Shown here piece after piece: positions 1 to 17,386 of a DNA stretch of 43,375 bases. The position numbers were made by a program, and so were the translations under genes. The stretch lies in NCBI GenBank assembly GCA_045601625.1, contig JAZSAA010000200.1, forward strand, positions 1 through 43,375, given 5' to 3'. Each line of letters starts with the position of its first letter. Position 1 is the first letter of the stretch. This stretch comes from Clostridia bacterium (lineage in GTDB: Bacteria > Bacillota > Clostridia > Christensenellales > Aristaeellaceae). The notes beneath the pieces were generated by a model. That model did not search any database. It saw only the letters and a list, made by a program, of their open reading frames with translations, and was not told where the DNA came from.

Positions 1-73
1 CTTCGGCGGGCTCCGCATCGGCGCCCCTACACGATTGTATGCCCTTTGATGCGCCGTCATTATTGAACTTTGT

Positions 74-1015
74 CTATTCCTCCAGCGCCGCCTCGGTCAT
101 CGTCAGCGTTCCCGCTTCGGCGTCCAGGCTGCAGCGCACGCCCAGGGGCACGGTGATCTTGCTCGGCGTGTGACCGATAGACAGGTTCGCCAGTACCGGC
201 TTTCCGGCGGGCACGATGATGTCCCGTATGACGTCCTCCAGGCGCAGGGCGTAGCGTTCGTACTCCTCGGTGCAGTTGGTGAAGCCGCCCAGCACCACGC
301 CGGCGCACTTATCAAACATGCCCGCCAGGCGCAGCTGGGTCAGCATGGAATCCAGCCGATAGATGTATTCCCCCACGTCCTCCAGCAGCAGCACCTTGCC
401 TTCGGGGTTCAGCTGGTAGGGCGTGCCACAGGTGGCGGCGATCAGCGACAGGTTGCCGCCCACCAGCAGGCCCTCGCAGCGGCCCGGAACGACGCACCGG
501 GGCGTCATGCCCTCGGGGTTTTCAAGCACGCCCAGCGGCTCGGTGCTGGTCAATGCCCGCAGCATGCTCTCCCGGGAGAAATCGTCGAACTCCATCCATG
601 CCCGGTCGGGCATCGGCCCGTGAAGGGTCACAAGCCCTGCCTTTTCATGGATGGCCGTGTGCAGGGCGGTGATGTCCGAATAGCCCAGCAGGATCTTCGG
701 GTTTGCGCGGATGGCGTCGAAGTCCACCTGGTCCAGTATCCTCGCCACGCCGTAGCCCCCGCGCATGCAGACCACCGCGTCCACCCGGTCGTCCCTGAAC
801 ATCCGGTTCAGGCCCCTGGCCCGGGCGGCGTCGGTGCCGGACAGGTAGCCGTATTCCTCCCGGCAGCTGTCCGCCACGATGACCCTGTAGCCCAGGGCGT
901 CAATAACCCCCAGCATCTTCTCAAAGCGGGTCTCCGCCTCGTGCATCGCGCCGGAGATGCCCACCAGCCCGATGGTATCGCCCTTGCGAAGGGGCCTGGG
1001 TTTCAGAAGGTTCAT
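74..1015 (-). CDS. ldcA: LD-carboxypeptidase (peptidase S66, muramoyltetrapeptide carboxypeptidase)
   Basis: 313-aa ORF. It has an N-terminal KGDTIGLVxxSG, a nucleophile region LLGYSDITALH and a C-terminal SIGHTP motif, all typical of the S66 LdcA/MccF family. No signal peptide. Confidence 0.88.
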   Translation of the reverse strand: MNLLKPRPLRKGDTIGLVGISGAMHEAETRFEKMLGVIDALGYRVIVADSCREEYGYLSGTDAARARGLNRMFRDDRVDAVVCMRGGYGVARILDQVDFDAIRANPKILLGYSDITALHTAIHEKAGLVTLHGPMPDRAWMEFDDFSRESMLRALTSTEPLGVLENPEGMTPRCVVPGRCEGLLVGGNLSLIAATCGTPYQLNPEGKVLLLEDVGEYIYRLDSMLTQLRLAGMFDKCAGVVLGGFTNCTEEYERYALRLEDVIRDIIVPAGKPVLANLSIGHTPSKITVPLGVRCSLDAEAGTLTMTEAALEE

Positions 1016-1054
1016 GGTTCATTCTTCTTTCATATATGTTTGCAGGGCATAATC

Positions 1055-1213
1055 CTGATTTGTCGCGGGGTCGACAAATCAGAATATGAGAGTTGAGAGT
1101 ACAGAGTTAAGAGTTCAGATAAGGTCGAATCCTGACGGATTTCCATTATTCCAGCGGACATTTGCCTTCCGCTGACTATCTCTAAACTCTTCACTCTAAA
1201 CTCTATTCTGATT
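1055..1213. repeat. Composite palindromic element between the alr stop and the ldcA start: an 11-bp perfect hairpin plus a ~45-bp-arm imperfect inverted repeat built from (G)AGAGTT-like units
   Basis: CTGATTTGTCG (1055-1065) pairs with CGACAAATCAG (1072-1082). The left arm 1076-1122 (AAATCAGAATATGAGAGTTGAGAGTACAGAGTTAAGAGTTCAGAT) is an imperfect reverse complement of 1176-1213 (CTATCTCTAAACTCTTCACTCTAAACTCTATTCTGATTT). AAATCAG (1076-1082) is shared by both structures. Confidence 0.7.
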
Positions 1214-1216
1214 TAT

Positions 1217-2341
1217 CTATCCAACCTCCACAACCTCGCCGCTCCGGGTATACACCCTCGGTACGCGGCGGCCGATGCGGGTCAGCGCTTCGTTGCGGTG
1301 GGCGCCGGTCCAGGCGGAATACTGTTCCAGCGATATGCCGTCGCCCATCAGCGTCGCGGCGTCGCCGGGGCGCACCTCCGGGATGTCGGTCACGTCCGCC
1401 ATCATCTGGTCCATGCACAGCAGTCCCGCCACGGGCGCGCGCCTGCCGTGGATCTCCACCGCGCCCACGCTGTTCACCCGGGGATAGCCGTCGGCGTAGC
1501 CGGCGGACAGCGTGGCGATGACCCGGTCGCGCTCGAGGGGATGGCTCTCATCGTAGCCCAGGTATTCCCCCTTCGCCACCCGACGCACCTGCGCCACCCG
1601 GGTCATGAACCGCACGGGCAGGCGACACTCGCCATTGGCGTTGGGATAGCGGCTGGGCACCACGCCGTAGAGCCAGGCCCCGATGCGCACCGCATCGAAA
1701 TGCCACCGGGGATGGCGCACCATGCCGATGCTGTCGCAGGCATGAAGCAGGCCAAAGTCCATGCCTGCGCCCTTCAGCGCGCCCACCGCGCGCAACAGCC
1801 TGTCGATCTGCGCGGCGTCGGCGTCCACGTCCCGCAGCGCCAGATGGGTAAACAGGCCCTCCACCCGTAGGTGGGGCAGCCCGAACACCGACGCGATTTC
1901 ATCCATGCGCTCCGGATCGAAGCCCAGGCGGTGCAGGCCGGTGTCCAGCTTGACGTGCGTCCGCGCGTGCAGGCCCGTTCGGGCCGCGGCGGCGTCCAGC
2001 AGGCGCGCCTGGTCGATATCGTAGACGGTGGCGATCAGGCCCTCCCGGACGGCCGTCTCCATCTGCGCCGGGGCGATCATGCCCAGCACAAGTACGTCGC
2101 CGCCGCAGGCTTTCTTCACCTCAACGGCCTCGTTCAACTCCGCCACGGCGAACAGCGACGCGCCGAGGCCGGCCAGCTCCCGGGACAGTGCCGCCGCACC
2201 GAGACCGTAGGCGTTCGCCTTCAGCACCGGGATGATCCGGACCCCGTCGCCGCAGATGGCCTCTGCGGAGCGATAGTTCCCGGCCACGACGTCCAGGTCG
2301 ATCTCGACCCAGCAGCGGGCCCTTGCCAATGCCGCGTTCAC
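1217..2341 (-). CDS. alr: Alanine racemase
   Basis: 374 aa. N-terminal WVEIDLDVVAGNY and the PLP-lysine motif PVLKANAYGLG are present, and the length is typical for the family. The GTG start overlaps the upstream stop (GTGA). Confidence 0.93.
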   Translation of the reverse strand: MNAALARARCWVEIDLDVVAGNYRSAEAICGDGVRIIPVLKANAYGLGAAALSRELAGLGASLFAVAELNEAVEVKKACGGDVLVLGMIAPAQMETAVREGLIATVYDIDQARLLDAAAARTGLHARTHVKLDTGLHRLGFDPERMDEIASVFGLPHLRVEGLFTHLALRDVDADAAQIDRLLRAVGALKGAGMDFGLLHACDSIGMVRHPRWHFDAVRIGAWLYGVVPSRYPNANGECRLPVRFMTRVAQVRRVAKGEYLGYDESHPLERDRVIATLSAGYADGYPRVNSVGAVEIHGRRAPVAGLLCMDQMMADVTDIPEVRPGDAATLMGDGISLEQYSAWTGAHRNEALTRIGRRVPRVYTRSGEVVEVG

Positions 2342-3129
2342 AGCCCACCCTCCCCAAGGGCGAGGGCCTTCGCCGTATCCTGTATCAGCCGTTCAAAGGC
2401 GGGCACGTTTACGCGGTTGGACAGCATGCAGACGACGAAGGGCTTTTCGGCATAGATGATCCCGGCGTCGTGGGTGATGTCATCGTCCTCGCCGGTCTTG
2501 TGGGCACAGCGGATGCCCCGGCTGTGCAGGTAGAAGGGCAGCTTGCCGTTCAGCCGCTGGTTCAGCAGTATATCGACCATCCGCCCGTCGGGTCCTTCGC
2601 CCAGCAGCGTCCCGGCCGCCATGCGCTCCAGCAGCGTGCCGACGCCCCTTGCGGTGACGGTGTTCTGTATGCCCCGGGCCGACAGCTCCGGCTCGAACAG
2701 CCTGCGGCGCAGGGCGATGCCGGGAATATCCAGTTCGGTCATGGTCCGGTTGACGTGCTCCGGGGTCAACCGGTCGATCAGCATATTGGTGGCGGTGTTG
2801 TCGCTGAGTATGATCATCAGCGTGATCAGGTCCATCAGCGTCACCTCGAGGCCGTCGTGCATGTAGCTCAGCGCGCCGCAAGAGGGCATCTTGTCCTCCG
2901 GCTTCACGGCGACGGTCTCATCGGGGTCCAGCCTCCCCGCGGCGATGTCCCGGAACGCCGTCACCATGATGGGGATCTTGATGACGCTGGCGGCAATCAG
3001 GGGGAGGTCCGGGTTGTGGGTGACAACCCGATCCTCCCCCAGGACGCGATAATAGAAGCCCACGTTGCCGGGAAAGGCCCGTATGGCGTCAAAGCAGTTC
3101 ATCTCTCGCTTCACTTCGCTTTCCATCAT
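2338..3129 (-). CDS. Class A beta-lactamase-fold serine hydrolase, no signal peptide (predicted cytoplasmic)
   Basis: All four class-A motifs are present in order: S-x-x-K (ASVIK), SDN (LSDNTATN), omega-loop FEPELS (EPELN-like) and KTG (HKTGED). The start was taken at MMESEV, where ATGATG overlaps the stop of the upstream gene; the ORF-track start at 3231 would overlap that gene by about 100 nt. Confidence 0.85.
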   Translation of the reverse strand: MMESEVKREMNCFDAIRAFPGNVGFYYRVLGEDRVVTHNPDLPLIAASVIKIPIMVTAFRDIAAGRLDPDETVAVKPEDKMPSCGALSYMHDGLEVTLMDLITLMIILSDNTATNMLIDRLTPEHVNRTMTELDIPGIALRRRLFEPELSARGIQNTVTARGVGTLLERMAAGTLLGEGPDGRMVDILLNQRLNGKLPFYLHSRGIRCAHKTGEDDDITHDAGIIYAEKPFVVCMLSNRVNVPAFERLIQDTAKALALGEGGL

Positions 3130-3731
3130 CCGTTGCTGGACGAGCTGGAGGAGGAGAACGACGCCGTGTTCTCGCGGTCCTTCATCATGTGGATCAGCGT
3201 GACCAGTATCGCCACCACGATCTGCTCGCACTCCGGCCGGTAGATGTCGATGCAGAACTTGTCGTGAAGGGAGATCGCCTTCTGGCCGATCACCGCGATG
3301 ATGCTCTCGTCCCGGTCGTACAGCTCGAAGTTCAGCCCGACGATGTTGCCCCGGAGCTGCCAGCCCAGGCCCTCGATGTTGGTGATGTCCTTCACCAGGT
3401 GGAACAGCTCGTTGGACATTTCGAACTTCTCGCCGCTGGCCATGGTGATGAAGTGGCGCTCGTGGAGCGAGAAGATCTTGCTCTCGATGTGGGCCACCTG
3501 GCTGCCGTGGGCATCCGTGATGTCCGTCTTGTCCTTGATGGAGATGGCCTTGCTGTTCGCCTCGTACACCACCCGCTCCTGGTCGTCAGTGATGTCGATA
3601 TGATGATGCAGCGAAAAGACCTTTGAAGAGGTATAGAGGGAGTGATGCGGCTCGCCAAAGCGCTCCACATTGTTGACGTTGGCGGCCTCTCCCGCCTCAT
3701 GGAACCGATGGAACTTGGAAAAAACGCCCAT
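3126..3731 (-). CDS. LURP-one-related (LOR) / DUF567 tubby-C-like family protein with a poly-Ser C-terminal tail
   Basis: 201 aa starting at MGVFSKF, preceded by AGGAGGT 7 nt upstream. Recurring KIFSLHERHxI / KAISLHDKFxI strand motifs and the length fit the LOR/DUF567 family. The tail is SFSSSSSSSNG. Confidence 0.72.
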   Translation of the reverse strand: MGVFSKFHRFHEAGEAANVNNVERFGEPHHSLYTSSKVFSLHHHIDITDDQERVVYEANSKAISIKDKTDITDAHGSQVAHIESKIFSLHERHFITMASGEKFEMSNELFHLVKDITNIEGLGWQLRGNIVGLNFELYDRDESIIAVIGQKAISLHDKFCIDIYRPECEQIVVAILVTLIHMMKDRENTASFSSSSSSSNG

Positions 3732-3832
3732 TATGATACCTCCTGAGATGTCGGTCGTCTGTGTGACGGCGCAGGCGCCGCCGCAACATTCGGCTTGGTC
3801 AAGCGCGCCGCCGCGACCATTCATCACGGGCA

Positions 3833-3868
3833 GGCGCGCGCCGCTTTGATCTTTGGCGGGCGCGCGCC
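3833..3868 (-). terminator. GC-rich hairpin between the 748-aa secreted-protein gene and the LOR operon
   Basis: GGCGCGCGCCGC (3833-3844) pairs with GCGGGCGCGCGCC (3856-3868); the loop is TTTGATCTTTG. No clear U-tract follows on the minus strand, so terminator function is uncertain. Confidence 0.35.
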
Positions 3869-3880
3869 GCCGCCATGATC

Positions 3881-6127
3881 TTACGGCGTATAGAGGTGGC
3901 TCATGGCCGCCAGCCTGCCGTTTTCGATGGTCACGCGGGTGTTGTACTGGTCAAAGGAAGCGTCCTCCCCCGCCTTGGCGATGGCGTCCACGATTTCCGC
4001 GCCCCGGGCCATCACCGGGTTCTGGGTGGGATCGGACACGTCGGTGTAGCTGGTATCGTCGTCGATCATCAGCGTGGTCACGCCGTGGTCGGTGTAGGTC
4101 GCCAGGTCGGTGTAACCCGATACATAGTAGAAGCCGGTCTCCGCGTCCAGGCGCAGCTCCACGCCGTTTTCCCCGTCCAGGCCGCCGTTGACCGCCACGT
4201 CGCCTCCGAAGTCCACGGACTTGACCTCGATGGTCTCGCCCTCCACGACGATGCTGTCCCCCGCCGCCAGCGCTTCGATGTCCTCGGCGGCGTAGCGGTC
4301 CTCGGTAAAGACGTGCACGCTGTTCATGTAGATGCCGGACGCGCCACTGAAGATGTCGCCCCTGTTGAAAGCCACCGGCCACGTGCCGTCCGGCAGATGG
4401 GTCACGTCCACGTCCACAGTCATCGGCGCGACCGTCCTGGCCGGGGCCTCGATCTCGTTTGCGTAGGTCACGACGTTGCTCAGCCACTTCTCGCCGGTCT
4501 TGTCGTCGATGGCCAGTGCCGCGAAGTTCAGGCTGCCCTCGCCCCACTCCATATCCGCGGTAAAGCTGCCGGAGGCGTCGTTGGCCGCGTTGCCCTTCAG
4601 CTCCACGCCGTCCAGCGCCATGACCAGGTCCTCCGACCGGAAGTCGGGCGTCTCCCCGAAGGTCAGCAGCAGCGCCGTATAGGTGCAGCGCCCGTCGCCC
4701 AGGTTCGTCAGCGACCATCTGTAGGTGACCATGCCGCTTTCGTCGGCCGCATCGGCCGGGGTGACGGTCAGGGCCAGGTTCACGGCGTCGTCCTGGCCCT
4801 CGCCCTTCCATTCCCCGTCGGGCAGGGCATCCAGCCAGGCGTTCACCGCCGCGTCGATGTCCGCGGGACGGATGACGCCTTCCTGGGCTACCAGGCCGCG
4901 ATCCTCCGCGAAGGCGGCGTAGGCCGCGTCCAGCTTCCTGCCGTAGATGCCGTCGAAGCCGCCGGCGTCGTAGCCCACTTGCTTCATGATCTGCTGCAGG
5001 GCGCGGACGTCCTCGCCACGGCGGCCACGCTCGAACCAGGGCTGGGGCTCCACGGCCTCGTGCTGTTCATAGCCGCAGTCCCGGCAGGTGCGCACGCGCT
5101 CGCCGGCCTCGGTGCGGGTCATCTCCTTCACGGTCTGCCAGGGGCCGAAGTCGTGGCGCAGGCGCTTGAGCGTCTGGGGCCAGGCCACGCCGTCTGGCTC
5201 AAGGTCCTGGTCCTTCTGGAACTGCTTGACCGCCTTTTCGCAGCCGCCGCCGAAGATGCCGTCCGCGCCGCCGGCGTTCAGGTAGCCCTGGTCCACCAGC
5301 AGTTGTTGCAGCGCGCGCACATCGTCGCCCCTGTCGCCGCGGCGCAGGGTGCCGTCGGGGTCGAAGCTCTCCTCGCCGCCGTTGTGGCCGCAGACCCTGC
5401 ATATCTTCGCCCGGGTGCCGGAGGAGTGGTCGGTGGCCTCGACAGTCACCTGCCACTCGTAGTCGTGGGGCAGCTTTTCCAGGGTCTCAGTCTCCACATA
5501 GCCGCAGACCTTGCACTTGCGCTCCCGTTCGCCGGTCTCGGTGCAGGTGGGCTCCTCGGTCACCTTCCACTTGCCGAAGGTGTGATCGGCCAGGTAGGTC
5601 TCCCGCTGCTCATAGCCGCAGCGCTTGCAGGTGCGCTCCCGCTCGCCCTCCTTGACGCAGGTGGCCTCCTTGATGACCTTCCACTTGCCGAACTCATGCT
5701 CCAGCCGGTCCAGCTTCTCGGTCTTGGTGGTTCCGCAGATCTTGCAGGTGCGCTCCCGTTCGCCGGAGTGGGTGCAGGTGGGCTCGTCGGTCACGTGCCA
5801 CTTCCCCCACTGGTGCTTGCAGTACTTCGGGGGCATCTCGTCCGCCAGGTATTTGGTCAGCACCCAGGCCTCCATCTGCCCGCCGTGCTTGGTGTCCTCC
5901 AGCAATATGGATGTGTACTTGCTGCCAAACATAACGTCGCCGCTGAGCATGACCGGGGTGCCGCCCTTCAGCTTCTTGACGACCTTGGAATCCGAGTCCG
6001 GTTCCTCGTGCGCCTCCAGCTTGTCCTTGTTGACATACTTCGTGTACTCGTCGGCGCTCGCGGGAATCGCAAGCAGCAGCGTCATGGCCAGCGCCACGAC
6101 GGCCAGCCACGCGATCAGCTTTCTCAT
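3881..6127 (-). CDS. Secreted multidomain cell-wall-binding protein: signal peptide, SH3b-like domain, 5 Cys/His repeats, 2 PG_binding_1 domains, beta-rich middle region, uncharacterised C-terminal domain
   Basis: Start at MRKLIAWLAVVALAMTLLLAIPASA, with GGGAGG 7 nt upstream. Two GxxGxDVRALQQxLxxxGY...DGIFG/DGIYG peptidoglycan-binding repeats are present. Tandem HxFGKWxVxxEPTCxxxGERERxCxxCG units are also present. Confidence 0.85.
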   Translation of the reverse strand: MRKLIAWLAVVALAMTLLLAIPASADEYTKYVNKDKLEAHEEPDSDSKVVKKLKGGTPVMLSGDVMFGSKYTSILLEDTKHGGQMEAWVLTKYLADEMPPKYCKHQWGKWHVTDEPTCTHSGERERTCKICGTTKTEKLDRLEHEFGKWKVIKEATCVKEGERERTCKRCGYEQRETYLADHTFGKWKVTEEPTCTETGERERKCKVCGYVETETLEKLPHDYEWQVTVEATDHSSGTRAKICRVCGHNGGEESFDPDGTLRRGDRGDDVRALQQLLVDQGYLNAGGADGIFGGGCEKAVKQFQKDQDLEPDGVAWPQTLKRLRHDFGPWQTVKEMTRTEAGERVRTCRDCGYEQHEAVEPQPWFERGRRGEDVRALQQIMKQVGYDAGGFDGIYGRKLDAAYAAFAEDRGLVAQEGVIRPADIDAAVNAWLDALPDGEWKGEGQDDAVNLALTVTPADAADESGMVTYRWSLTNLGDGRCTYTALLLTFGETPDFRSEDLVMALDGVELKGNAANDASGSFTADMEWGEGSLNFAALAIDDKTGEKWLSNVVTYANEIEAPARTVAPMTVDVDVTHLPDGTWPVAFNRGDIFSGASGIYMNSVHVFTEDRYAAEDIEALAAGDSIVVEGETIEVKSVDFGGDVAVNGGLDGENGVELRLDAETGFYYVSGYTDLATYTDHGVTTLMIDDDTSYTDVSDPTQNPVMARGAEIVDAIAKAGEDASFDQYNTRVTIENGRLAAMSHLYTP
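5384..5821 (-). repeat. Intragenic tandem repeat: four consecutive ~37-39-aa Cys/His modules, with a fifth isolated copy at 5063-5155
   Basis: Four modules were read from the translation: CKHQWGKWHVTDEPTCTHSGERERTCKICG; HEFGKWKVIKEATCVKEGERERTCKRCG; HTFGKWKVTEEPTCTETGERERKCKVCG; HDYEWQVTVEATDHSSGTRAKICRVCG. Confidence 0.85.
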
Positions 6128-6179
6128 GGATATACCTCCCTTTTGCGTTGATCGATGAATGGATTTTTCAGCCCGAGTA

Positions 6180-6210
6180 TTGACTTGGGGCATACTTCCA
6201 TGTATATAAT
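6180..6210 (+). promoter_or_regulatory. Candidate sigma-70 promoter for the alcohol dehydrogenase gene
   Basis: TTGACT (6180-6185), a 17-nt spacer, then TATATA/TATAAT (6203-6210). An AAAGGAGG RBS follows before the ATG at 6270. Confidence 0.45.
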
Positions 6211-6269
6211 AGTATAAACTGTGAACTGGCGATTGTCAACGGACCGTTTCAAAAAAGGAGGATATCGAC

Positions 6270-7448
6270 ATGTTCCCATTCAACTACTACACCCCCACCA
6301 GAGTGATCTTCGGCAGGGACGCCGAGCTGAGGGTCGGCGAGATGATCAAGCTGTTCGGCGGCACGAAAGTGCTGATCCACTACGGCGGTGGCAGCGTGAT
6401 CCGCTCCGGCCTGATGCAGCGGGTCACCGACACCCTCGACGCCGCCGGGATCGCGTATATCATGCTGGGCGGCGCGGTGCCCAACCCCCGGCTGAGTCTG
6501 GTCTACAAGGGCATCGAGCTGTGCAAAAAAGAGGGTGTGGACTTCCTGCTGGCCGTGGGCGGGGGCAGCGCCATCGACAGCGCCAAGGCCATCGGCTATG
6601 GCGTGTACAACGGCGGCGACGTGTGGGATTTCTACGACCGCAAGCGCAAGGCTGAGGGCTGCCTGCCCCTGGGCGTGATCCTGACCCTGTCCGCCACCGG
6701 CAGCGAGATGAGCGACTCCTCGGTCATCACGAAGGAGGAGGGCCTGATCAAGCGGGGCTACAGCAGCGACTACGGCCGGGCGAAGTTCGCCCTTCTGAAT
6801 CCGGAGCTGACCATGACCCTGCCCGACTACCAGACCGCCTGCGGCTGCGCCGACATCATGATGCACACGATGGAGCGCTACTTCTCCGGCGGCGGCACCA
6901 TGCAGCTGACCGACGCCCTCGCCGAGGGCCTGCTGCGCACGGTGATGGCGAATGCCGAGATTCTGGTGAAGGACCCGAAGAACTACGACGCCCGGGCCGA
7001 GGTGATGTGGGCCGGCAGCCTGTCCCACAACGGCCTGACCGGCTGCGGCAGCGACGGTGGCGACTGGATGACCCACAAGCTGGAGCACGAGCTGGGCGGC
7101 CTGTACGACGTGGCCCACGGCGCGGGACTCACCGCCATCTGGGGCAGCTGGGCGCGCTACGTCTACCGGGATTGCCTGCCCCGCTTCCGTCGGTTCGCGG
7201 TGAACGTGATGGGCGTGGCGCCCGTCGGCACGGACGAGGAAATCGCACTGAAGGGCATCGAGGCCACGGAGGCGTTTTACCGCCGCATTCACATGCCCAC
7301 CAACCTGCGGGAGCTTGGCGTGAACCCCACCGAGGACGAGCTTCGCACGATGGCTCACAAGTGCGCCGAGGGCGTCGGCGGCGCGAAGGGCTCGGCAAAG
7401 CTCCTGCACGAGGCGGATATGCTGGCGATCTACCGGGCGAGCCTGTGA
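6270..7448 (+). CDS. Iron-containing (group III) alcohol dehydrogenase, butanol dehydrogenase/YqhD-like
   Basis: 392 aa. N-terminal FxYxxPTRVIFG, a GGGSVIDSAKAIG-type motif (GGGSAIDSAKAIGYG) and a C-terminal metal-binding His cluster (HxLEHELGGLYDVAHGAGL). Confidence 0.92.
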   Translation: MFPFNYYTPTRVIFGRDAELRVGEMIKLFGGTKVLIHYGGGSVIRSGLMQRVTDTLDAAGIAYIMLGGAVPNPRLSLVYKGIELCKKEGVDFLLAVGGGSAIDSAKAIGYGVYNGGDVWDFYDRKRKAEGCLPLGVILTLSATGSEMSDSSVITKEEGLIKRGYSSDYGRAKFALLNPELTMTLPDYQTACGCADIMMHTMERYFSGGGTMQLTDALAEGLLRTVMANAEILVKDPKNYDARAEVMWAGSLSHNGLTGCGSDGGDWMTHKLEHELGGLYDVAHGAGLTAIWGSWARYVYRDCLPRFRRFAVNVMGVAPVGTDEEIALKGIEATEAFYRRIHMPTNLRELGVNPTEDELRTMAHKCAEGVGGAKGSAKLLHEADMLAIYRASL

Positions 7449-7462
7449 CGCCAAAACAGAAA

Positions 7463-7531
7463 AGATCCTTCGCTTTGCCCAGGATGACAGGGAAATGTTC
7501 CGATGTCATCCCGGGGCGAAGCGGAGGATCT
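7463..7531. repeat. REP-like palindromic intergenic element, copy 1
   Basis: AGATCCTTCGCTTTGCCCAGGATGACA - 14-nt loop - TGTCATCCCGGGGCGAAGCGGAGGATCT. It lies between the convergent adh and yajC genes. The flanking ACAGAAA/TTTCTGT extends the pairing. Confidence 0.9.
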
Positions 7532-7550
7532 ATTTCTGTATGGCCGTCGA

Positions 7551-7982
7551 TCAGATCTGGGGCTCGGCGTCGTTCTCCAGGGCCACGTTCTCCACAGAGC
7601 GGATGGCCCAGCGGGCGATAACGATGGTGTTCTGCAGGGAGCCCATGGTCAGGGTGACGGAGTCGTCCTTCAGGGCGGCGATGGTGCCGTACAGGCCGCC
7701 GATGGTGCAGATGCGGTCGCCCACCTTCAGGGCCGACAGCATGTCCTTCACCTGCTTGTCCTTCTTGCGCTGGGGACGGATCAGCAGGAAATAGAATATG
7801 GCGATCATCCCCACCATCATCACGACGGTGCTGACCAGGCTGCCCGTCCCGGCAGCTGCGGCCGCCGCCTGGTCAGCGGTGCCGGCGGCAGCGGTGGTCG
7901 TGGTCGCGGCAGCGGCTTCACCGGTGGCGACGGAAACAGACTGATTGGCCTCGGCCAACAGGTTTACGAGATTCATGAACAT
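7551..7982 (-). CDS. yajC: Preprotein translocase subunit YajC, with an Ala/Thr-rich N-terminal extension
   Basis: Core IFYFLLIRPQRKKDKQVKDMLSALKVGDRICTIGGLYGTI is a canonical YajC signature. The start was chosen at MFMNL, with AAGGAG 8 nt upstream. Confidence 0.88.
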   Translation of the reverse strand: MFMNLVNLLAEANQSVSVATGEAAAATTTTAAAGTADQAAAAAAGTGSLVSTVVMMVGMIAIFYFLLIRPQRKKDKQVKDMLSALKVGDRICTIGGLYGTIAALKDDSVTLTMGSLQNTIVIARWAIRSVENVALENDAEPQI

Positions 7983-8105
7983 ATCGACTATCTCCTTTGC
8001 GTGCTTGTGAAACAATACAATTATAACCGAGTTTGGAAGGAATTACAACTTTTTGAGGGATAAATATGGGCGTGGGGATGTAAAATTTCGGTAACTGTCA
8101 GAGGG

Positions 8106-16252: not shown

Positions 16253-17386
16253 ATGAACGAGAAACAGCTTATCGAGGTGTTCCAGTGGCTGCACCGCCAT
16301 CCGGAGCTGGCCTTGGAGGAAACGGGGACAACGGAATATTTGAAAAATGCCCTCCTGGAGAAAGGGGTGCGGCTGCTGGACACCGGCCTTGAAACCGGCC
16401 TGATCGCCGTGATCGGAAGCGGTGAAGCCCCCGTAATCGCGCTGAGGGCCGATATGGACGCCCTGCCGATTCAGGAACAGACCTCCCTGCCCTACGCCTC
16501 CGGGACGCAGGGGGTCATGCACGCCTGCGGCCACGACTTCCACTCGGCCTGCATGCTGGGCGCCGCGCTGCTGCTGAAGGCGCGGGAAGGGGCGCTTTGC
16601 GGCACGGTGAAGGTCATCTTCCAGCCCGCCGAAGAGATCAACGCCGGCGCGGCGAAGATGATGGCCACCGGCCTGCTGGACGACGTGCGGCTGTTCCTCA
16701 CCGGGCACACCTATCCCTGGTACCCGGCGGGCACACTGGGCATTCGACCGGGGCCGGTCATGGCCTCCGCCGACCGCTTTTCCGTTACCGTCAGGGGCAG
16801 AGGCTGCCACGCCGCCCATCCGGAACTGGGCGTCGACCCGATCCCCGCGCTGGGCGCGATCATCTCCTCGGTCCAGACCATCGTCAGCCGACAGGTCAAC
16901 CCCTTCGACAGCGCGGTCGTATCCATCACCCGGGCGCAGGCGGGCACCACCTGGAACGTGACCCCTGAAACGGCGCTCATCGAGGGCACCGTGCGCGCCA
17001 TGACGGAAGCGGTGCGCGAGCGCATCCGCGAAAGTCTGGAGCGGCTGGTCGTAAACGCCGCGAAAACCCACGGCTGTGAAGCGGCGTTTGAATACGAACG
17101 CGGCCCCTCCCCGGTGATCAACGACGCCGGACTCTGTGACCGGGCCGCGGTCGCCGCAAGGGAAACGGGTTTGCGCGTCGAGGTCAATCCCCCGTCCATG
17201 ATCGCGGAGGATTTCAGCCGGTATCTGAAGCTCGCCCCCGGCGCGCTCTTCAGGATCGGCACCGGCGGCGGCTTCGACAACCATCACCCCGCCTTTACCG
17301 CCGATCCCACAGCGCTAATGCCCGCGGCACGCTTCTTCGCCACGCTGGCCGAGAGGGAGCTGTCGCGCCTGACGCAGGGAGTATGA
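16253..17386 (+). CDS. M20D-family amidohydrolase (N-acyl-L-amino acid amidohydrolase / hippurate hydrolase-like)
   Basis: The N-terminus MNEKQLIEVFQWLHRHPELALEE is typical of the family. The metal site MHACGHDFH is present and the length fits. Alternative in-frame starts at 16244 and 16181 lack an RBS and overlap the -10 box. Confidence 0.9.
   Translation: MNEKQLIEVFQWLHRHPELALEETGTTEYLKNALLEKGVRLLDTGLETGLIAVIGSGEAPVIALRADMDALPIQEQTSLPYASGTQGVMHACGHDFHSACMLGAALLLKAREGALCGTVKVIFQPAEEINAGAAKMMATGLLDDVRLFLTGHTYPWYPAGTLGIRPGPVMASADRFSVTVRGRGCHAAHPELGVDPIPALGAIISSVQTIVSRQVNPFDSAVVSITRAQAGTTWNVTPETALIEGTVRAMTEAVRERIRESLERLVVNAAKTHGCEAAFEYERGPSPVINDAGLCDRAAVAARETGLRVEVNPPSMIAEDFSRYLKLAPGALFRIGTGGGFDNHHPAFTADPTALMPAARFFATLAERELSRLTQGV

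Follow-up and report, generated by a model that had tools for sequence, protein, structure and literature searches.

An Asn-type accessory racemase and a leaderless class-A beta-lactamase-fold hydrolase at the edge of a putative D-amino-acid peptide salvage locus in Clostridia

The described system that appears closest to the locus presented here is the dppA-dppBCDE-ykfABCD cluster of Bacillus subtilis, which encodes a D-aminopeptidase, a dipeptide ATP-binding cassette (ABC) importer, the LD-carboxypeptidase YkfA, the L-Ala-D/L-Glu epimerase YkfB and the gamma-D-Glu-diaminopimelate endopeptidase YkfC (PMC2954226). Our locus lies at the start of contig JAZSAA010000200.1 (contig C200) of a Clostridia bacterium of the Aristaeellaceae, known from a metagenome-assembled genome (MAG; GCA_045601625.1) that is 66% complete and comprises 551 contigs, ~65% G+C and 3.2 Mb; its relatives are other rumen and gut Clostridia MAGs. 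The whole stretch of 43,375 nt that was analysed is referred to as the window. Five genes stand on the minus strand at the window start, encoding a PG_binding_1 protein, a LURP-one-related (LOR) protein, a PF13354 protein with the class-A beta-lactamase fold (hereafter bla-like), a racemase and an S66-family protein (Table 1). An earlier reading of the DNA, the original prediction, had described LOR/DUF567, bla-like and alanine racemase genes as a translationally coupled trio upstream of an LD-carboxypeptidase gene, suggested to serve together in the cytoplasmic salvage of D-Ala and muropeptides; open reading frames and Pfam matches confirmed that all four genes exist. In our reading, to which we assign a probability of about 0.6, the window start is the edge of a rearranged locus that imports and degrades peptides with D-amino acids, most likely peptidoglycan stem peptides. 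The salvage theme holds for the racemase and the S66 protein and less firmly for the bla-fold enzyme, but the three-gene module does not.

Based on 14 loci fetched for the accessory racemase in the genus, with open reading frames in this high-GC DNA selected by a codon-position-GC filter, gene order identifies the racemase and S66 as the conserved unit, to which genes for an Opp importer and an M20D amidohydrolase are linked. The S66 gene follows the racemase in 13 of the 14 loci, the fourteenth being cut by a contig end, and in 12 of them the pair is convergent with a TIGR01891-type M20D gene and OppF/OppD, beyond which lie OppC, OppB and a divergent SBP5 gene. The window's own genome holds OppD-OppF-M20D on contig C366 (2.2 kb), which is broken inside M20D and has an orientation that fits the window start. 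A bla-like gene stands upstream of the racemase in eight of the 14 loci, with a gap of -4 to +6 nt in those relatives where the distance was checked, and it appears to have joined the racemase operon in only part of the genus, as a later addition. Where it is absent, the genes upstream of the racemase encode a DUF4236 protein, a sugar ABC ATPase, permeases or a pectinesterase; these are mutually unrelated, and therefore nothing substitutes for the bla-like gene there. The trio of LOR, bla-like and racemase genes, whose synteny in relatives was checked, is not conserved.

Like the dpp-ykf system, the locus couples a peptide ABC importer to putative cytoplasmic enzymes for D-residue stem peptides, including a protein of the S66 LD-carboxypeptidase family; this linkage of importer and S66 gene is seen in the same 12 genus loci and also beyond the genus, the window's own importer being on C366. 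Relatives outside the genus also encode a D-aminopeptidase of the M55 DppA type within this operon, and other clades of the bla-like family adjoin an orthologue of YkfB. Unlike dpp-ykf, the locus adds an Asn-type racemase, an M20D enzyme and, in this genus, a leaderless class-A-fold hydrolase, and its genes are split into two convergent units.

The window racemase is a member of the family of alanine racemases, with 238 bits against TIGR00492 (cut-off 168) and conserved motifs for the lysine that binds pyridoxal 5'-phosphate (PLP; VLK41ANAYG) and for the second catalytic Tyr (GY263DES). Its top NCBIfam match is the VanT-G catalytic domain (285 bits, under the cut-off of 460), and its best match among solved structures is 4ECL, the same catalytic domain (207 bits). 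Alignments to 4ECL and 5YYC place Asn350 (codon 1294-1292) at the column of Tyr354 in the B. subtilis alanine racemase (BsAlr) and of Asn696 in VanTG; in the 4ECL alignment it matches the Asn of the SITNELL stretch. At this serine-selectivity position, the exchange Y354N raised the serine racemase activity of BsAlr 62-fold, and N696Y lowered that of VanTG 30-fold (PMC4542195). The Asn is shared with VanT-G, but in place of the VanT residues Tyr543, Ser567 and Thr695 the window racemase has Ile205, Pro229 and Arg349, giving Ile205-Pro229-Arg349-Asn350 (I-P-R-N) at the four VanT-specific positions. Also unlike VanT-G, it consists of the catalytic domain only, with no N-terminal membrane domain and no van operon around it, and its conserved partners are catabolic. 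A preprint describes many Asn-positive, catalytic-domain-only vanT genes without van context (10.64898/2026.10.22.760690). In the genus, accessory copies (238–261 bits) occur in 15 of 31 genomes, and all 15 carry the Asn; housekeeping alr (~300 bits) is found in nearly all genomes, the copy of the window's own genome, on contig C406, having Tyr. The gene that had been called an alanine racemase is an accessory paralogue, in which Asn takes the place of Tyr354, and not the housekeeping alr. From its residues, we consider that the enzyme probably accepts D-Ala and also D-Ser.

Racemase loci were also surveyed in GTDB genomes; among the 80 closest, the I-P-R-N signature stands in eight genus loci and in 25 others at 38–55% identity, with 36 loci being Tyr-type. 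The neighbours of the 25 I-P-R-N loci outside the genus differ from those of the Tyr-type loci: OppD/F lies upstream in 14 of the 25 and in none of the 36, SBP5 is present in 11 versus none, M20D lies downstream in 17 versus one, the M55 DppA-type D-aminopeptidase is present in 14 versus none, and S66 in seven versus none. Many I-P-R-N loci are cut by contig ends, and therefore these neighbour counts are minimum values. In two of the 25 (L137 and L147; none of the 36) the operon is closed by a PF00144 serine hydrolase, which is leaderless because its domain begins at residue 9–11. Gene order thus points to an ancestral-type unit of OppABCDF-racemase-M20D-M55-S66, sometimes followed by a PF00144 hydrolase, which in the window's genus appears to be rearranged into two convergent parts. 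In the literature searched, we found no racemase linked to dppA or ldcA.

The two PF00144 proteins (L137:9252-10691 and L147:9093-10514) are ~475 aa long, have the class-C-type beta-lactamase fold, and close Opp-racemase-M20D-M55-S66 operons in two MAGs, one labelled Faecalibacterium and one from the Aristaeellaceae. They may be a second penicillin-recognising fold type in the same pathway slot. At L137:7335-8290, the M55 gene is seemingly split into two open reading frames of 140 and 178 aa, by a frameshift or an assembly error.

The bla-like gene has neighbours of its own. Racemase and S66 adjoin it only in the eight closest of 80 bla-like loci (≥76% identity). The YkfB orthologue (1JPM, E 8e-116), after which SBP5-OppBC follow, is found in Lachnospiraceae, Angelakisella and one MAG each of Anaerofilum and Clostridium, the bla-like gene lying 9–44 nt (at most ~400 nt, in Angelakisella) upstream of it, and in two cases a GH25 muramidase or an M42 aminopeptidase gene is found upstream. 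In another clade the gene comes 13 nt after an orphan SBP5 gene, itself after an SLT lytic transglycosylase gene. The theme of D-Ala and muropeptide salvage is supported because Opp, M20D, M55 and S66 adjoin the I-P-R-N racemases and because YkfB adjoins the bla-like clades. No PF02016 (S66) match was obtained in the assembled part of genomes G047 and G048, the Lachnospiraceae behind L069 and L064 with bla-ykfB-SBP5-OppBC, where the carboxypeptidase step might fall to the bla-fold enzyme. A sister group (L020-L048, e.g., L033 and L037) has a context very unlike these, the gene standing between those for a GT2 protein, an EryCIII/GT28-like glycosyltransferase, a double-GNAT protein and a pair of ABC exporters.

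Table 1. Features at the start of the window (positions are those of the forward strand)
Feature	Position	Strand	Family or signal
PG_binding_1-domain protein, 770 aa	6193-3881	minus	
LURP-one-related / YxjI-type protein (LOR), 201 aa, Ser-rich tail	3126..3731	minus	PF04525; GGAGG Shine-Dalgarno
Leaderless class-A beta-lactamase-fold / PBP-A-like serine hydrolase (bla-like)	2338..3129	minus	PF13354, E 4e-59
Accessory PLP racemase, alanine-racemase fold, 374 aa, GTG start	1217..2341	minus	PF01168 + PF00842
Dispersed palindromic repeat, like a miniature inverted-repeat transposable element (MITE) or repetitive extragenic palindrome (REP); one copy, inside the racemase-S66 spacer 1016-1216	1052..1213	none	
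Protein of the S66 LD-carboxypeptidase family, 313 aa, without signal peptide	74..1015	minus	PF02016, PF17676

The start of the bla-like gene was examined in relatives. The ATGA overlap with the LOR gene, on which its proposed coupling to LOR was built, is literally in the sequence at 3129-3126, but its ATG is not the conserved start. An indel of 1 nt shifts this ATG out of frame with the bla-like gene in the five closest relatives, where a stop codon shuts the frame three codons ahead of the only usable start; this start corresponds to the window ATG at 3102-3100, 23 nt past the LOR stop. Coupling of the two genes by overlap is doubtful because the ATG is out of frame in these relatives; the overlap appears not to be conserved, and the tight spacing of both genes remains. 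The second proposed overlap, GTGA at the bla-like stop and the racemase start, is present at 2341-2338. The bla-like protein is 254 aa long from the conserved ATG 3102 and 263 aa from ATG 3129. Among 79 homologues the start codon lies mostly 38–45 residues ahead of the catalytic Ser, in many cases with the frame closed a short way upstream; this leaves no room for a signal peptide, and therefore the whole family is leaderless. In the window protein, whose start is 38 residues before the Ser, we found no export signal (signal peptide or lipobox) and no hydrophobic N-terminus, in agreement with the earlier view that the hydrolase lacks a signal peptide. In contrast, a signal peptide is present in 96.9% of 1369 characterised beta-lactamases (PMC11633517).

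The class-A motifs that had been recognised in the hydrolase were found again, at class-A spacing (61/37/65 residues): S48VIK (Ser48 at 2988-2986), S109DN (109–111), E146PELS (Glu146 at 2694-2692) and K211TG (211–213). An alignment of 81 family sequences revealed that SxxK, SDN and KTG are invariant. The Glu166 column holds Glu in only 16 of the 81, essentially the clade of the window's genus, and otherwise Asp, Gln, Arg or Met; in E146-P-E-L-S, the window protein retains the Glu166 equivalent and has Ser at the Asn170 position. Two further stretches are invariant family-wide (residues of the window protein, numbered from M10): P73-S-C-G76, near class-A residues 104–107, and the acidic ED pair straight after KTG in H201-K-T-G-E-D206. 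These PSCG and ED residues may define substrate specificity.

The protein scores 84.3 bits against the curated NCBIfam class A model NF033103, under the cut-off of 200. Its closest solved relatives by sequence and predicted fold are 4EWF, PBP-A, 4HES and LRA-5; the AlphaFold2 model has a pLDDT of 95.9 and a template-modelling (TM) score of 0.85–0.90 to the closest structures. Each of these relatives is either a non-lactamase or an uncharacterised class-A-like protein. The closest relative that has been characterised is PBP-A of Thermosynechococcus elongatus (Tll2115; 2J7V, 2J8Y, 2J9O), a DD-carboxypeptidase/endopeptidase that acts on muropeptides; it works extracytoplasmically, was studied in the E. 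coli periplasm, and belongs to a family described as cyanobacteria-only (PMC11189452). The window protein is like PBP-A in its fold, in 26–28% identity and in the SxxK/SDN/KTG motifs (phmmer E 1.2e-23 to 2J9O; Foldseek TM 0.85–0.87, ~0.86 overall). Unlike PBP-A, it has Glu at position 166, where PBP-A has Leu158 (PDB title of 2J9O), and it is leaderless and comes from a Clostridia-wide family. LRA-5, 4EWF and 4HES, the last two from structural genomics, share the fold as the nearest neighbours of the bla-like protein. LRA-5 is a class-A-like protein without lactamase activity, inactive because Glu166 is missing (PMC12777564), and in 4EWF the aligned residue is Arg; in this respect as well, the Glu sets the window protein apart. 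In the literature searched, we found no characterised cytoplasmic class-A-type DD-peptidase. By homology and gene context, the bla-fold hydrolase would plausibly contribute a D-stereospecific peptidase activity, for which a DD-carboxypeptidase acting on pentapeptides or on D-Ala-D-Xaa bonds is the leading guess.

The S66 protein matches both domains of its family over their full length (PF02016, E 6e-40; PF17676, E 1.4e-36), and it scores 161 bits against the NCBIfam LdcA equivalog NF008424, whose cut-off is 378. Among PDB sequences, it matches MccF with 128 bits in two stretches, and LdcA with 112 (6UUK) and 105 bits (5Z01) in one stretch each. As part of the proposed locus, its gene would be co-transcribed with the racemase gene.

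From these enzymes and their gene order, we infer the following substrates and order of steps. Stem peptides would be imported by Opp, and the leaderless class-A-fold hydrolase would take off the C-terminal D-residue, turning a pentapeptide into a tetrapeptide or cleaving a D-Ala-D-Xaa bond. S66 would then remove the D-Ala of the tetrapeptide, M20D would cleave the remainder, and the racemase would convert the freed D-amino acids (D-Ala, perhaps D-Ser) to usable L-forms. Going beyond this, we tentatively suggest, as an idea that may well prove wrong, that the I-P-R-N racemases are an undescribed catabolic subfamily of relaxed or altered specificity (D-Ala and D-Ser, or another D-residue), fixed in a widespread Clostridial salvage operon in which cytoplasmic penicillin-recognising-fold hydrolases, class-A-type here and class-C-type elsewhere, would serve as D-stereospecific peptidases on imported cell-wall peptides.

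Several observations weigh against the salvage locus as proposed. The join of the window to C366 is one that we infer; M55 was not found in the window's own genome (66% complete) and occurs in only three of the 31 genus genomes; and there is no YkfB in the racemase loci and no YkfC at the locus, although no search was aimed at YkfC. The S66 protein resembles MccF and LdcA to about the same degree. The bla-like gene is missing from six of the 14 genus racemase loci, its paralogues in the genus adjoin an alpha-amylase, an Ldh_2 enzyme, a MoxR-type ATPase/transglutaminase set and a DDE transposase, and 36 of the 81 family members, forming the well-supported sister group, lie near genes for GT2/GT1 glycosyltransferases, GNAT proteins and ABC exporters and not near peptide genes. 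Such scattered neighbourhoods would also fit a mobile, often relocated passenger whose function, for example in the glycosyltransferase/exporter context of the sister clade, is unrelated to the racemase and S66, and our tree does not separate the racemase-linked copies from the genus paralogues (quick IQ-TREE with SH-aLRT, an approximate likelihood-ratio support; its looser half is without resolved deep branching). We regard a passenger as rather unlikely, since where the gene is present it lies on the same strand and within the narrow distance from the racemase start given above, since at least three other families (Lachnospiraceae, Oscillospiraceae, Clostridiaceae) have it beside YkfB and peptide-transporter genes or SBP5, and since a penicillin-recognising hydrolase of another class closes the ancestral-type operon in L137 and L147. 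That the window clade keeps Glu166 is compatible with real beta-lactam hydrolase activity, and a true beta-lactamase, cytoplasmic or released by lysis or a non-classical route, with neighbours that are irrelevant, would account for the predicted class-A fold and for Ser70, Lys73, Ser130, Asn132, Glu166 (FEPELS) and Lys234-Thr-Gly being kept at class-A spacing in the genus clade. It is an improbable explanation for a family without a leader in which most members lack Glu166, given also the Ser in place of Asn170, the score far under the class A cut-off, and PBP-A, LRA-5, 4EWF and 4HES, which are non-lactamases or uncharacterised (PMC12777564), as closest solved relatives.

The VanT-G match of the racemase and its key Asn could be taken as signs of van-like wall remodelling, in which the racemase would make D-Ser and a bla-fold DD-carboxypeptidase, a cytoplasmic parallel to VanXY/VanY, would trim D-Ala-D-Ala precursors together with S66 and so lower glycopeptide binding. 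This we consider very improbable: the neighbourhood encodes neither a D-Ala:D-Ser ligase nor VanRS nor a membrane transport domain, the only clear ddl being on another contig, the other three signature residues are Ile, Pro and Arg and not Tyr, Ser and Thr, the conserved partners (Opp, M20D, M55, S66) are catabolic, and the preprint cited above places many genes of this Asn-positive type outside a van context. There is equally little to be said for the LOR protein as a functional partner of the hydrolase and racemase, for example as their regulator or membrane tether; the original prediction had called its coupling to alr notable. The LOR gene is on the same strand, 23 nt before the bla-like start, and the five closest relatives keep this arrangement; but nine of the 14 fetched racemase loci are without LOR, none was found near bla-like or racemase genes outside the genus, and LOR orthologues (67–79% identity) at 12 other genus loci have neither gene nearby and no common neighbour. 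The claim of a conserved coupled trio thus falls, with LOR beside the bla-like gene only in the window and its closest relatives (five of the 14 loci) and beside variable genes elsewhere, and comparison of these loci suggests that LOR is a recent bystander, a chance neighbour and not a conserved partner of the salvage locus.

The LOR protein itself matches PF04525 with 35.6 bits (gathering threshold 24.5), a family also carried by its homologues, of which there are 3027, some named YxjI or LOR/scramblase family; against solved structures, its only match, to At5g01750, is non-significant. B. subtilis YxjI is in the same Pfam family, and yxjI is part of the core envelope-stress regulon of sigma-W (PMC3498285). 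We found no link of YxjI or LOR to peptide catabolism, either in B. subtilis or here. Two sheep-gut metatranscriptome runs gave contigs over LOR and the LOR/bla-like junction (one at 2991-3324) and none over the racemase; since neither level nor strand nor a single transcript can be read from contigs, these were not counted as evidence.

The racemase-S66 spacer, which had been described as structured and about 200 bp long, does measure 201 bp and has a strong predicted fold (-63 kcal/mol, z -4.9), but it is filled almost wholly by one copy of a ~165-bp dispersed repeat with 82 matches in the window's own genome, many at contig ends. In an alignment, copies of the repeat (e.g., on contigs C533, C378, C383, C411 and C14 of genome G000) share the conserved core GGTCGAAATCCTGACGGATTTCCATTATTCCAGCG and the terminal hairpin AATCAGAAT/ATTCTGATT. 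Its depth in metagenome DNA run X1 is 667 versus ~30, a ~20-fold excess, and the repeat probably helps to fragment the assembly because its copies often sit at contig ends. In relatives, the racemase-S66 gap ranges from ~20 to >300 bp and is only ~20–55 bp in some, such as L002, L007, L008 and L115-L117. Based on this short gap and on the repeat copies, the spacer is an insertion into a tight junction and not a dedicated regulatory structure; it matches no Rfam family, and therefore it is not a known riboswitch or leader.

A scan of positions 1-4000 for promoter and terminator consensus sites gave no more sites than shuffled sequence, and an Rfam scan of positions 1-8000 at E≤1 gave a chance miRNA match only. 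The gap of 149 nt between the PG-binding and LOR genes (3732-3880) has four GC-rich GCGGCGCGCG-type palindromic units, and it may carry another inserted repeat because the same gap is just 28–68 nt in relatives. A second M20D-type amidohydrolase is encoded at 16268-17314 on the plus strand of the window, with 35% identity to the Opp-linked M20D.

Surveys of the gut and rumen resistome label such genes "class A beta-lactamase" and "vanT". Both genes most likely encode cytoplasmic nutrient-salvage enzymes, and the resistance labels would therefore be misannotations. As natural cytoplasmic members of the penicillin-recognising fold, the hydrolases are material for studies of the divergence of DD-peptidases and beta-lactamases. 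The operon type that the comparison defines combines Opp, M20D, M55 and S66 with an Asn-type racemase and, optionally, a serine hydrolase, and it suggests how anaerobic gut Clostridia may exploit the D-amino-acid peptides from the walls of other bacteria.

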